DNA of 64,000 bases from Escherichia phage RB69, in sequence record NC_004928.1; one strand, given 5' to 3'. Numbering within the stretch: position 1 is the stretch's first letter; each line of letters opens with the position of its first letter. The notes under the pieces were generated by a model. It had not been told where the DNA came from, ran no database searches, and worked only from the letters and a program-made list of their open reading frames with translations. Of this stretch, positions 891-13,173 are shown piece by piece. The position numbers and the translations under genes are program-made.

Positions 891-920
891 ATAGTATCAA
901 AGTCCTTGGAGGAAGTAAAC
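891..920 (-). promoter_or_regulatory. sigma70-type early promoter (-35 GTTTAC, 18-nt spacer, -10 TACTAT) upstream of denV
   Basis: Minus strand reads GTTTAC(18 nt)TACTAT; T4 early promoter architecture. Confidence 0.6.
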
Positions 921-921
921 A

Positions 922-1203
922 CTATTTTTCTGAAGCGCCTGAAATATATTTTTCAAGACGTTGTTTCATTAGCGAGCCGTTCTTAGCGATTTCTTCCGGT
1001 TTATCGCACATACGCAACAAGGCTTCAAGCTTAACGATATCACTGGTGCGCTCAAATTTGCGAGTATCTATCTTGCTAGCAAGTTCAGAAATACGTGCTA
1101 ATAGACTTTCAGCTTCAACCAAAGCTGCACCTAGCTTCGTGGCAAATGTGTCAGTAGCTTCGTTAAGAGATAGATTCTGATAAAAATTCATGTATGTTTT
1201 CAT
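922..1203 (-). CDS. hypothetical protein with MKTY N-terminus (degenerate capsid-targeting-like)
   Basis: ORF track 922..1218; ATG at 1201-1203 overlaps the e stop codon (ATGA); product begins [11 protein letters not shown]. Confidence 0.5.
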
Positions 1204-1688
1204 ATATACGCTTTCCAAGTTCCTGTTTTAAATGTTGAGATTACGCGTTTCGCGCGATTAGGTGTCTGACGATACCATTTAGATTGGGCTAGATTTACTG
1301 CCGCTTCGTCCCAACGTTTCTGTTGAAGCATACGAAGAGAATTAGTAAAACCGGCGACGCCTGATACACCCATTTGGAAGACCATATTGACCAATGCACA
1401 CCGACGAACTGCATCTAAAGAATCATATACCGGTTTAAGTTTAGCATTACCCAAGATTCCGCGAACGGCTTTATCAACGTCTTCATTAAATAGCTTTTCA
1501 GCCTCATCAAGGGTAATTGTACCGTTGCATTTACGGCCGATCATTCTGTCAAGTTCAGCTTTAGCTACGGCTAAAGACGGGTTCTTTGTTACTAAATGGC
1601 CTATGCCAATCGTCCAAAAGCCTTCAGTGTCTTTGTATAAAGTCAGTCTAAGACCTTCGTCATTACGAAGCATTTCAAATATATTCAT
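1200..1688 (-). CDS. e: lysozyme (endolysin)
   Basis: [32 protein letters not shown]... matches T4 lysozyme over its whole length; GGAGG 5 nt upstream of ATG at 1688. Confidence 0.96.
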
Positions 1689-1722
1689 AATACCTCCCAC
1701 GTTTATAGGAGGTATTTATTAC

Positions 1723-2181
1723 TTATAGGAGGGTAGTGAGCACCTTATATAATGATTTGCCCATTACATATTCCCATTGAGAAGGTTTAATTAAAGCGAA
1801 TGCATCAAATTCAGGAATCTGTCGTCCGTCTGGGAATGTATGATAGGAATTACAAACACTGTTTCTGAATTGCTCGTGCTCTACAGGGATGGTATATAGG
1901 AACAGATGAATATTCTTATTGTCTGAGTAATGATGTTCACCTAGGTCTTTCAGGAAGGCAGGGTCATATTGTGTAAACCCAGTTTCTTCTTCGCATTCAC
2001 GAATAGCGGCTTCAATAGGAGATTCGCCAGGTTCGACACGGCCTTTAGGAATATCCCACCGATGAGCTAATGCACCTTTAGGACGAGAACCAGTTACACG
2101 CCCCATGAATAATTCTTTATCTTCGGTAAGGAAAATAATACCGGCTGATAGTTCTTTCACTTTATTTTTCTTACTCATCAT
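1723..2181 (-). CDS. nudE: NUDIX hydrolase
   Basis: Nudix box GRVEPGESPIEAAIRECEEETGF; position downstream of e as T4 e.1/nudE. Confidence 0.85.
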   Translation of the reverse strand: MMSKKNKVKELSAGIIFLTEDKELFMGRVTGSRPKGALAHRWDIPKGRVEPGESPIEAAIRECEEETGFTQYDPAFLKDLGEHHYSDNKNIHLFLYTIPVEHEQFRNSVCNSYHTFPDGRQIPEFDAFALIKPSQWEYVMGKSLYKVLTTLL

Positions 2182-2422
2182 CTCGGTCCCATGATTTGGC
2201 CATTAATTCGGACATAAATTCTTCAATGCGCGTTTCTTTAGATGGACTTTCACTATTAGAGACCGCAAGTTTGTAATCTGCAATAGGACGGAACAAATCA
2301 AGGTCCATATCAAGGTCGTCTTTGATTTGTTCTTCAGGTACATCTGTATCATACGTATACAGATAACTATCAAGTGATTCTGATTTAACGTAAATTGCTA
2401 TACTCATCTCAAATTCCTGCAT
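2171..2422 (-). CDS. hypothetical acidic protein
   Basis: 83-aa ORF; its start codon lies inside the ECR codons of the upstream gene. Confidence 0.5.
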   Translation of the reverse strand: MQEFEMSIAIYVKSESLDSYLYTYDTDVPEEQIKDDLDMDLDLFRPIADYKLAVSNSESPSKETRIEEFMSELMAKSWDRDDE

Positions 2423-2901
2423 TCGGTAATAAAACGTTCAACTTCATTATTCTTGGCCTTTATCTTGTCTTTACGTTCCTGTAAACTACTTTTAACAAGA
2501 TTAATAATGATGCCTACAGTACCTCCACCAATAATACCACCAATAATACTTACAATAGTAGATGCTAATAAGATAGCGATAATATCTGGTACAGCAAAGG
2601 CACTTACTTTAGTACTAAAAAACCATACCGACGGTACAAATATAATCCATCCTGTTATCCATTGGCACTTATTGAAAAACTTTTCAAGCTCAGCTTGGGT
2701 TGTTCGTATTACTTCATCGATAGGTTGATATCCATTAATGTATCTGTTCACGATAATACCTGCTGGTTTGTCGATTTTAAATGCTTGACAATGGTGTTTC
2801 ACTAAGTAGGATGGACATCCTGTCCAATCTACTGAATAGTATGAAATACCTTCGTCGCCACCGTCCATGTTTGACCAGTGAATTTTCTGTATCATTACCA
2901 A
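2404..2901 (-). CDS. hypothetical membrane protein, C-terminal FIxECR motif
   Basis: 165 aa; hydrophobic segments WIIFVPSVWFF / IIAILLASTIVSIIGGIIGGG; ends ERFITECRNLR. Confidence 0.55.
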   Translation of the reverse strand: MVMIQKIHWSNMDGGDEGISYYSVDWTGCPSYLVKHHCQAFKIDKPAGIIVNRYINGYQPIDEVIRTTQAELEKFFNKCQWITGWIIFVPSVWFFSTKVSAFAVPDIIAILLASTIVSIIGGIIGGGTVGIIINLVKSSLQERKDKIKAKNNEVERFITECRNLR

Positions 2902-3581
2902 CCTTCCATAGGGAATTCCAGATAAACTTGAGCGTTGACACGAATTTCATTGGTAATCTTTTTAACTCGGTCCGTATTACGAGATACACGTCCGAACCAA
3001 CGCCATCCATTACTAATTGCACGAGAACCAGTGTGCCATGTTTGCCAATCAAACTGAAGAAGAGTACGGTCTGGAGCTTCCCATTTCTCTAGTTCGCCTT
3101 TTTCGATTTTTTCGAGGACTTCTTTGTGCCACTGGCGATAGATAAGTTCGCCATCAGGAATCTGACTGAACTCTGCAGTTCCTGTTGCAAAATGAGTAGG
3201 ACACACATCAGCGTTAACAAGACCAAGAATATGTTCAGACAAATAGCGAGGATTGTCATAGTCAGGTGGTCCTGCAGTAATAAAGTGTTGACCAACCGGA
3301 ATATCTGGGCGTGGTACATCGTCATGGTGATAACCTGGGATAGCAGGATACCAACCAGGCATCAGCATGTGGACTCGTGAATCAAATACTACATCCGAGT
3401 CTTTCCAATCGTCAGGGAGATTTTGGATAAAGCTACGAGTAATTGGACCGCCGTTATCAAAAGCAAAATTCAAATCGCAATTAAAGAACATAGGCTCGTT
3501 TTTAATCTGGTCGTTTTTAATCGCATGAGCAAAACCACCTACTGCACGAGCTTGACTATTAAACACTTTAGAACTATTCAT
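2895..3581 (-). CDS. hypothetical protein
   Basis: 228-aa ORF in the minus-strand early block; no motif recognised. Confidence 0.55.
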   Translation of the reverse strand: MNSSKVFNSQARAVGGFAHAIKNDQIKNEPMFFNCDLNFAFDNGGPITRSFIQNLPDDWKDSDVVFDSRVHMLMPGWYPAIPGYHHDDVPRPDIPVGQHFITAGPPDYDNPRYLSEHILGLVNADVCPTHFATGTAEFSQIPDGELIYRQWHKEVLEKIEKGELEKWEAPDRTLLQFDWQTWHTGSRAISNGWRWFGRVSRNTDRVKKITNEIRVNAQVYLEFPMEGW

Positions 3582-3582
3582 A

Positions 3583-12191: not shown

Positions 12192-12377
12192 TTACTCACC
12201 TTTTGCAATTTTATCCATAACAATAGCGATTAAACCGATTAGAAATGCTACTACCAATGAGATAGAGTTTTCAGTTGTTGTCAGTAGTCCACAAATGAAT
12301 CCTACAAACATCGAAAAACTAAAAGCCATTGAAGCAATTACTACAGCAACATTACGAATCAGTTCAGCGCGTTTCAT
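12192..12377 (-). CDS. small hypothetical membrane protein
   Basis: Two hydrophobic helices; start taken at second ATG (12377) which has a GGAG RBS; track start 12398. Confidence 0.5.
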   Translation of the reverse strand: MKRAELIRNVAVVIASMAFSFSMFVGFICGLLTTTENSISLVVAFLIGLIAIVMDKIAKGE

Positions 12378-12415
12378 TTTATTTCTCCATTTACTCATTT
12401 TGTTTTGATAGGACT

Positions 12416-12445
12416 ACTATAACATAGTCTTATCAGCATGTAAAC
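12416..12445 (-). promoter_or_regulatory. sigma70-type early promoter inside inverted repeat
   Basis: Minus strand GTTTAC(18)TATAGT within gataggactactataacatagtcttatc. Confidence 0.6.
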
Positions 12446-12448
12446 TAC

Positions 12449-12736
12449 TTACAGAAGAGTTTTTGCAATAATTTTAAGCTGAGCTACAGAAATATGCTTA
12501 GCTTTAAACAGTGCAGTCTCTTCAGCCGGAGAGATAACAATAGTAGCGCCATCTTTCTTAGCAGACCATCCATCCCCTAAGTAAACAGTACCTTTTACTT
12601 CTTCGCCGTCAACCAGACTAATCATTGGTTTACCCTCACGTCCTTTATTTGCTTTAATAACTTCGGAAGTAAGGGTTGCTTCGGTCAGAGTAGAAACGTT
12701 AGCAACAGGTGATATAAATTCTTTATAGGTTTTCAT
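12449..12736 (-). CDS. internal head protein-like (capsid-targeting N-terminus)
   Basis: Start at ATG 12736 gives MKTYKEFISPVANVSTLTEA...; T4 IP-type leader with L-x-E site. Confidence 0.65.
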   Translation of the reverse strand: MKTYKEFISPVANVSTLTEATLTSEVIKANKGREGKPMISLVDGEEVKGTVYLGDGWSAKKDGATIVISPAEETALFKAKHISVAQLKIIAKTLL

Positions 12737-12768
12737 TTTAGGTTCCATTTTGTTGTTTTGATAGGACT

Positions 12769-12798
12769 ACTATAACATAGTCCTATCGTGTTGTAAAA
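12769..12798 (-). promoter_or_regulatory. sigma70-type early promoter inside inverted repeat
   Basis: Minus strand TTTTAC(18)TATAGT within ataggactactataacatagtcctatc. Confidence 0.55.
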
Positions 12799-13109
12799 TA
12801 TTTTATGCCTTTAGATGAAATAGTATTCTGGCGTTTGACCCCTGTTTGTGAAAAATCATGGTTATCAATTTGGTCAACTCGCATAACACCAAATGCAGAT
12901 TTAATTTTAGCCTTTGAACCTTTTTTGATACTAATTACCATATAAGTATCATTTTTCTTATATTCGAAATTTGTTACTTCAACGCCTTGATTAGAAATTG
13001 ACTTAATAATAGCATTAGCGTATTCATCATCTAACGGACCGTTAGTGTTAATAACAAAATTTTTATCTGCTTTAGTAGCTTCCGCGATGAATTCTTGATA
13101 GGTTTTCAT
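12783..13109 (-). CDS. internal head protein (IPI-like position)
   Basis: N-terminus MKTYQEFIAEA identical in type to T4 IP leader; lies next to 57B as ipI does in T4. Confidence 0.7.
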   Translation of the reverse strand: MKTYQEFIAEATKADKNFVINTNGPLDDEYANAIIKSISNQGVEVTNFEYKKNDTYMVISIKKGSKAKIKSAFGVMRVDQIDNHDFSQTGVKRQNTISSKGIKYFTTR

Positions 13110-13143
13110 TTTATTTCCTTGAGGTTGTTTATTTGATAGGATG

Positions 13144-13173
13144 ATAGTAACACACCATCATCCTTATGTAAAC
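13144..13173 (-). promoter_or_regulatory. sigma70-type early promoter
   Basis: Minus strand GTTTAC(18)TACTAT. Confidence 0.55.

Follow-up and report, generated by a model that had tools for sequence, protein, structure and literature searches.

Probable T4-type early promoters with covarying inverted repeats at accessory-gene boundaries in Escherichia phage RB69

Why do so many small genes in the early region of a T4-like phage stand behind nearly the same promoter, and why does an inverted repeat so often surround the -10 element of that promoter? The question is raised by a 64,000-nucleotide stretch of Escherichia phage RB69 (record NC_004928.1), hereafter the window. A sequence-only reading of this DNA had picked out at least ten minus-strand sites between 891 and 13,173, plus two at 45562 and 61282, as copies of an early-promoter cassette that might mediate gene shuffling. 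All of these sites exist, the last at 61280 rather than 61282. We consider it probable that they are T4-type σ70-dependent early promoters of the phage, that the hairpins many of them carry insulate neighbouring transcription units, and that the repeated modules act as recombination cassettes.

The motif is far more frequent than chance predicts and is confined almost entirely to one strand. GTTTAC-N17-18-TAYWRT is matched 12 times in the window against 0.27 expected (11 of 12 on the minus strand), and TTTAC-N18-TAYWRT is matched 14 times against 0.93 expected, all 14 on the minus strand, which carries the early genes. GTTTAC and the -10 element are separated by 18 nt throughout, or 17 nt if counted from TTTACa. 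GTTTAC had been described as common to all listed sites; it is present at most of them, with variant -35 elements at four (ATTTAC at 8026 and 8311, TTTTAC at 12769, ATGTAC at 8524). Beyond the original list, sites are seen at 150–179, at 6100–6129 and, in the degenerate form GCGTAC/TATTAT, at 8893–8922, where the -35 in relatives is GTTTAC or GTGTAC. A generic σ70 scan as a whole shows no enrichment, and the promoter sites are its top minus-strand matches. An independent repeat search recovered the promoter module in two families, one of 52 nt with 7 copies and one of 66 nt with 5 copies.

The surroundings of the sites are equally uniform. The -35 element usually adjoins the stop codon of the gene upstream, and the 25 nt upstream of the sites average 74% A+T over a background of 62.5%. 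Nearly all sites share a (c)TATCAA start region, followed by a Shine–Dalgarno (SD) sequence and an ATG 25–45 nt downstream; the exceptions are 6100, with its ATG about 60 nt away, and 48408, which is intragenic. As had been claimed, each site precedes a different small gene. The features of T4-type early promoters are present, namely the GTTTAC -35, TGn, a TAnnnT -10, an A-rich upstream region and an A start within ATCA, and at 9231 the site is almost the same as the promoter of T4 e.8. Homology with the T4 promoters of this class predicts that the window sites are active in vivo. The T4 GenBank record has no promoter features annotated, and we take the window sites to be orthologues of mapped T4 promoters on the basis of sequence and the literature; dRNA-seq data for T4 have been posted (bioRxiv 10.1101/2024.04.04.588121). 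The 48408–48437 site, a perfect GTTTAC-N18-TACTAT followed by a small hairpin (CCGAGACAGCTCGG), is doubtful because it falls within the coding sequence of a 24.3-like gene, and may represent either an internal promoter or a coincidental match. A scan of IMG/VR with GTTTAC-N18-TAYWRT-N6-ATCAA returned, among the matches listed, a chance mix from unrelated contigs and was set aside.

About half of the promoters also contain an inverted repeat, and the repeats are of several kinds. A 26-nt palindrome, here called family A, occurs in four copies with at most one mismatch (3908, 5203, 12408 and 12761) against 0 expected in the window, and the 8311 promoter has its 3' half alone. The palindrome reported at many sites is thus real, but full copies are limited to these four, so that family A accounts for 4.5 of about 16 promoter sites. 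Different inverted repeats take the same position at 8026 (GAGAGC/GCTCTC), 13144 (GGATGAT/ATCATCC) and 8893 (GGGCTTATGAT/ATTATGAGCCC), and a weak one, GGATG/CATCC, is found at 61280. Altogether, 8 of the roughly 16 sites have a stable stem-loop, with RNA folds of -11 to -18.5 kcal/mol and z scores of -2.5 to -5.4 relative to shuffles. The 5' arm lies in the promoter spacer. In what we call class 1, the 3' arm comes just after the -10 element, which is thereby placed in the loop; in class 2, represented by denV, the 3' arm falls on the SD sequence. T4 follows the same design with other arms: CCTAGAATTGTGA/TCACAATTCTAGG at ipII, GATGAGGTA/TACCTCATC at ipI and TAGGCT/AGCCTA at e.7. The sites of the window are as follows.

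150–179, minus strand: early promoter (GTTTAC / TGgTATAAT) without hairpin; precedes an IpIII-like internal-protein gene starting at about 119
867–920, minus strand: probable early promoter of denV, with the -35 at 915–920, the -10 at 891–896 and the ATG at 861–863
905–914 and 867–876, minus strand: arms of the denV hairpin, TTCCTCCAAG in the spacer pairing with CTTGGAGGAA at the denV SD (dG -17.8, z -3.5)
3908–3945, minus strand: early promoter with family-A palindrome (3908–3933); precedes an RB69ORF133c-like gene (3583–3888); place of a one-gene insertion in JS09
5202–5240, minus strand: early promoter with family-A palindrome, one G.U pair in the sense RNA; precedes an RB69ORF135c-like gene (4943–5194)
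6100–6129, minus strand: early promoter-like site without hairpin, within the 3' end of e.3, with the next gene beginning some 60 nt downstream; a phiE142 breakpoint coincides with the edge of the -35
8020–8055, minus strand: early promoter (ATTTAC / TATAAT) whose -10 is enclosed by a hairpin of its own, GAGAGCA/UGCUCUC; precedes e.6 (7391–7984)
8303–8340, minus strand: early promoter (ATTTAC / TATAGT) with the family-A 3' arm only, in a conversion tract; precedes an frd.3-like gene (8055–8282)
8524–8553, minus strand: early promoter-like site (ATGTAC / TACTAT); precedes RB69ORF145c (8329–8493), which is deleted in PhAPEC2 with a chimeric module left
8884–8922, minus strand: degenerate promoter (GCGTAC / TATTAT) with hairpin GGGCUUAUGAU/AUUAUGAGCCC (dG -18.5, z -4.95); precedes RB69ORF146c (8562–8867)
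9231–9260, minus strand: early promoter of e.8 without hairpin; an intrinsic terminator lies upstream at 9401–9419
12408–12445, minus strand: early promoter with family-A palindrome, one A.C mismatch (G in relatives); precedes a trna.4-like gene (12192–12398)
12760–12798, minus strand: early promoter (TTTTAC / TATAGT) whose family-A palindrome pairs perfectly over 10 bp (dG -16.6, z -5.4); precedes an internal-protein gene (12449–12748)
12741–13087, minus strand: one-gene internal-protein cassette bounded by repeats of promoter, SD and first codons (MKTY.EFI)
13138–13173, minus strand: early promoter with another hairpin, GGAUGAUGGUG/UACUAUCAUCC, which has two G.U pairs and includes the -10 (dG -16.6); precedes an IpI-like gene (12783–13109)
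45562–45591, minus strand: early promoter preceding a small gene (about 45262–45531) between genes 23 and 24; its 5' untranslated region (5'UTR) is almost the same as the one in the 8524 module
61280–61309, minus strand: early promoter in the vicinity of alt; its hairpin, GGAUG/CAUCC, is weak (-4.7 kcal/mol)

The resemblance between the 8493–8553 and 45531–45591 modules, which are 37 kb apart, extends over the -10 element, the 5'UTR and the start (TACTATagacttatcaactacagaggagtaaacaaaATGact), and the second of them is placed between late genes.

The pairing of the arms was evaluated with 54 non-redundant promoters that were collected regardless of structure from the window, the records of relatives and twelve loci found through the e.6 protein. 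Between a spacer and its own segment after the -10, the mean duplex energy is -9.2 kcal/mol, compared to -5.1 with the segments of other promoters, and none of 5000 permutations was as low. Duplex energies of -8 kcal/mol or below are reached by 28 of the 54 promoters. Pairing of the spacer with the 5'UTR and SD, as in class 2, is non-random as well (0 of 5000 permutations). Since native pairing beats non-native pairing in this test, the complementarity of spacer and downstream segment is under selection. Compensatory changes are seen in the orthologous promoters of denV, regB and e.7/ORF146c. The T4 denV orthologue has the arms TCTCCTGTAG/CTACAGGAGA, changed yet complementary (T4 locus L002, about 3357–3416); for regB, each of three lineages has a complementary arm pair of its own; and at e.7/ORF146c one lineage carries AGGCT/AGCCT where another carries GGGCT/AGCCC.

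Family A itself is widespread. Its 46-mer is present in 6–9 copies per Mosigvirus genome, in 1–2 copies in Tequatrovirus and Dhakavirus, and also in 53 records of Acinetobacter T4-like phages. In the Acinetobacter phages KARL-1 (L007, 2001–2038) and Morttis (L008, 2001–2042), which belong to another subfamily, a GTTTAC promoter carries ATAGGACTAT-N6-ATAGTCCTAT; the palindrome copies in Acinetobacter phages precede unrelated genes, and neighbouring promoters there have covarying arms of their own. Downstream of the Acinetobacter-phage and Tequatrovirus copies, no homologues of window genes are found apart from one weak match of 32 residues, and therefore it is the promoter, not the gene, that is shared. 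Transfer may account for family A in the Acinetobacter phages, as may convergence, since the promoter consensus dictates the greater part of the arm.

What could such pairing do? Transcription would start about 7 nt after the -10 element, at the A of ATCAA. With that start, RNA made from the promoter itself would lack the 5' arm, and therefore only read-through RNA from upstream could fold the hairpin. Because the upstream stop codon usually abuts the -35 element, the hairpin is placed just 3' of the upstream gene. We infer from this arrangement that the hairpin functions in RNA, where it would insulate neighbouring transcription units. A class 1 hairpin might attenuate, process or 3'-protect the upstream transcript, and a class 2 hairpin might hide the ribosome-binding site of read-through transcripts, in the manner established for gene e. 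For the T4 genes e, soc, 49 and I-TevI, the SD forms the 3' strand of a hairpin that holds a late promoter in its 5' strand or loop; translation thus takes place from the short RNA, and the long read-through form is masked (PMC3014915). At denV, as in these gene e-type hairpins, the SD is inside the helix and the 5' strand is upstream of the proximal transcription start. The T4 genes use late promoters, however, whereas denV in the window, and regB in relatives, have an early promoter, and class 1 hairpins, unlike those of the gene e type, leave the SD uncovered. denV and regB thus appear to be an early-promoter counterpart of the gene e-type switch, with the masking itself predicted; this point is modestly new. 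The window also contains the translation-control hairpin of gene e (lysozyme) at 1689–1716 on the minus strand, AATACCTCC-TATAAACGTG-GGAGGTATT, with the ATG directly after it and a late-promoter-like TATAAA in its loop.

More tentatively, and with real doubt, we suggest that a spacer complementary to the region following the -10 is a general, selected design of T-even early promoters, in which read-through RNA is folded and self-initiated RNA is open. If so, the RNA of each gene would behave according to where it started, the read-through form being insulated, processed or, for denV and regB, translationally masked. The late-promoter switch of genes e, soc and 49 would then extend to early promoters, and part of the "extra consensus" of T4 early promoters would be explained.

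The second question is whether the modules mark places where genes are exchanged, and here the genomic setting matters. Judged by its sequence, the source phage is a T4-like coliphage of the genus Mosigvirus (RB69 group); positions 1–14 kb are 96.6% identical to Escherichia phage ChristianSchoenbein (Bas46) of that genus. The gene order of the first 14 kb is denV-e-nudE-e.2..e.8-tRNA-ipI-57B-57A-1. The minus strand of 1–14.6 kb, which corresponds to T4 62–75 kb, holds early genes: denV, e, nudE, e.2–e.8, two tRNAs, trna.2–4, internal-protein (IP) genes, 57B, 57A and gene 1. An Rfam search of the whole window returned the two tRNAs, and the promoter hairpins match no curated RNA family there. 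Two loci, 1–443 and 12449–13109, correspond to the T-even IP loci; upstream of the IP-type open reading frame (ORF) at 183–443 a promoter was sought and none was convincing.

Megablast of positions 1–15000 with eight Mosigvirus relatives gave 28 distinct internal breakpoints. With a module defined as running from 10 nt upstream of the -35 to 40 nt past the ATG, the twelve modules cover 9.2% of the 15 kb and contain 14 of the 28 breakpoints (binomial P = 3e-8), or 15 if the degenerate 8893 module is counted. Coincidence of cassette boundaries with breaks in synteny had been predicted beforehand and is borne out here. In JS09, a 275-bp one-gene insertion sits inside the 3916 palindrome, flanked by two promoters; in PhAPEC2, ORF145c is deleted and a chimeric module is kept. 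pEB20, phiE142 and L141 break at 12426 or 12445, and the IP cassette at 12741–13087 is absent from Bas46, phiEC1, PhAPEC2 and JS09. The 8311 promoter has the family-A 3' arm in the window, and because the six relatives with this promoter carry other sequence at that point, the comparison identifies it as a conversion tract whose end falls within the loop. JS09 (Mosigvirus, e region) and SA21RB (Tequatrovirus, nrdC region) share a 357-bp promoter-ORF-promoter unit with 90% identity; their homology extends no further than the A/T stretch upstream and the following ATG. We infer a mechanism in which modules of 50–110 bp, repeated between many small genes, would offer homology patches to the phage recombination system, and single genes with their promoters could be deleted, inserted, replaced or converted, as in the promoter early stem-loop (PeSL) cassette model.

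Other borders are visible in the same comparison. The intrinsic terminator at 10072–10111 (AGCCCCTTCCGAAAGGTTGGGGCTTTTT) is a homology breakpoint for 8 of 8 relatives; Bas46 and PhAPEC2 have an extra 465-nt ORF at this point, which in the PhAPEC2 annotation is flanked by two predicted terminators. Terminators thus seem to serve as cassette borders too. The SD and first codons (MKTY.EFI, an internal-protein targeting leader) are repeated at 97–158, 421–482, 9952–10013, 12714–12775 and 13071–13132, which marks five or more IP-type genes spread over two or three loci, and several homology breakpoints lie within these leaders. In ORF 183–443, a 137-bp segment (256–393) is replaced in phiEC1, PhAPEC2 and JS09, with breakpoints within the coding sequence and away from promoter modules.

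Several observations weigh against the combination of promoters, insulating hairpins and recombination cassettes. Around half of the promoters are without a hairpin, which is therefore not needed for promoter function. A pair count for 15 promoters in one register (93% pairing, 26 compensatory cells versus 6.6 expected) is descriptive only, as its rows were chosen for having a helix. The sense RNA is more stable than the antisense in 31 of 40 hairpins (p = 1.6e-4; 55 versus 27 G.U pairs), which is suggestive of an RNA role, but this advantage comes in part from a U.G pair of consensus bases. The breakpoint enrichment is inflated by survivorship, because viable indels end in intergenic DNA, which here is mostly promoter module. 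Breakpoints fall at modules with and without hairpins and cluster at the 10072–10111 terminator as well, and therefore plain homology may suffice. Finally, no T-run follows any of the promoter hairpins, their tail being ATCAAAACAA, the consensus terminator scan detects none of them, and the canonical terminators on this strand sit elsewhere (7365–7382 and 9401–9419); a classical terminator role is therefore not supported.

The same facts bear on an idea that we regard as unlikely: that the hairpins simply serve the upstream genes as ordinary Rho-independent terminators and overlap the next promoter by chance. Their stems are AT-rich, and the ARNold-based annotation of PhAPEC2 puts its terminators elsewhere. 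They do lie 10–40 nt past the upstream stop codon, however, in phage SA21RB the family-A element is annotated as a terminator by WebGeSTer, and one RB49 PeSL stem-loop lowered reporter expression in the way rrnB T1 does (PMC2839356). Alternatively, the repeat could act in DNA, where an extruded hairpin or cruciform would be cut by a structure-specific nuclease to create a recombination hot spot, and would exist for mobility rather than for RNA. Breakpoints inside the palindromes at 3933/3939 and 12426 and the 8311 tract ending in a loop fit this idea, as do a crossover in the loop of an RB49 mini-circle and the stem-loop-binding recombination protein on which its authors speculated (PMC2839356). 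But breakpoints are equally found at modules that have no hairpin (150, 6100 and 8524), at the repeats of SD, ATG and first codons, and at the terminator; stems of 6–11 bp with loops of 6–12 nt would not readily form cruciforms; a G.T mismatch in one strand means A.C in its complement; and class 2 arms end on the SD, which points to an RNA role. We therefore think a DNA-level function quite unlikely, and the distribution of breakpoints can be explained without it.

It is very unlikely that the palindrome is an operator, bound across the -10 element by a dimeric protein of phage or host that shuts the early promoters off. The arms vary widely and remain complementary (GAGAGC, GGATGAT, GATGAGGTA, T4 ipII CCTAGAATTGTGA), which argues for a structure rather than a shared recognition sequence; loop length and register vary too, and the tolerance of G.U pairs in the sense strand alone is as expected for RNA, not duplex DNA. 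In favour of an operator are the dyad symmetry of family A, centred on the -10 in 6–9 copies per Mosigvirus genome, the occurrence of the same arms in distant Acinetobacter T4-like phages, an outer TAGG...CCTA common to many arms, and a description of early-promoter shut-off as incompletely understood (PMC3014915). The shared CCTATC, however, is promoter consensus and is present even where the 5' arm is missing. That the repeat has no function at all, one palindromic promoter having been duplicated with its symmetry inherited or fortuitous, is scarcely credible. Four near-identical copies and gene conversion between copies would be expected of such a history, but unrelated arms at the same position in many promoters and compensatory changes in orthologues would not, and chance or pure inheritance of the repeat is contradicted by the permutation test of spacer pairing (0 of 5000).

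We thus favour promoters with insulating hairpins in recombining cassettes, and these have close precedents. A PeSL comprises an AT-rich stretch, a σ70-type early promoter plus a stem-loop, then SD and ATG (Arbiol 2010, PMC2839356); PeSLs sit between small accessory ORFs of hyperplastic regions, at the boundaries of indels and replacements (PMC2839356). In RB49 and phi1, the stem-loop is mostly between -35 and -10 or overlaps the -10, and crossovers occur in the loop, between the -10 and the SD, or in the AT-rich part (PMC2839356). The window modules have this architecture, repetition between accessory ORFs and location at indel boundaries in common with RB49/phi1 PeSLs. By contrast, the RB49 PeSLs have near-perfect TTGACA/TATAAT and stems of G-runs and C-runs, where the window has GTTTAC and varied AT-rich stems. 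When sequence homology between the window elements and RB49/phi1 PeSLs was sought, it was not found. Terminator activity and mini-circles are demonstrated for the RB49/phi1 elements, whereas the window elements were studied as sequence. Arbiol et al. classed the T-even elements as analogues, not homologues (PMC2839356). The proposed match to PeSL-type cassettes is therefore borne out by sequence-level features, with the qualification that the stems are AT-rich and the elements are analogues: the comparison supports a Mosigvirus instance of PeSL-type cassettes that is not homologous to the RB49 PeSLs. The PeSLs of Yersinia phage PST and T4 (Comeau 2014, PMC4122927) have the same consensus TTTACW-N17-TAYWAT and lie in hyperplastic regions near genes that vary between close relatives. 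Their stem-loops are drawn just upstream of the promoter (AGNA-loop-TCNT; PMC4122927), unlike the selected pairing in the window and in T4 itself, which joins the spacer to the region after the -10 or to the SD.

The repeats of the T-even IP loci, as outlined in PMC2839356 from Repoila et al. 1994, consist of a T4-type early promoter, a weak AT-rich stem-loop and conserved first codons. In that outline they have the same build as the IP loci of the window, and the IP genes are swapped between phages; unlike those repeats as described there, the window module also precedes non-IP genes across the e-to-tRNA region (3916, 5211, 8026, 8893 and 12416). T4 early promoters are summarized in PMC2988021 (from Liebig & Rueger 1989, Wilkens & Rueger 1996 and Miller et al. 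2003) as UP, -35, TGn and -10 elements with extra consensus regions. The window sites share with them the -35, TGn, -10, A-rich upstream region, +1 A, extra conserved positions, strand and location. T4 belongs to a different genus, however, and in that summary the consensus descriptions are silent on complementarity between spacer and start region. The elements are therefore ordinary for T4-like phages, since a cassette of promoter and stem-loop has already been described, and are not a new kind of element.

What the window adds is that the hairpin arms covary and that the 5' arm is always within the promoter, which provides a testable hypothesis for how densely packed early genes may be insulated from one another. 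These modules may aid the annotation of early transcription units and the prediction of gene-content variation among therapeutic and model phages, including those of the BASEL collection. They mark sites at which small accessory genes are gained, lost and swapped, and with them the RB69 group appears as a third T4-like lineage in which accessory genes travel as promoter-bounded cassettes.

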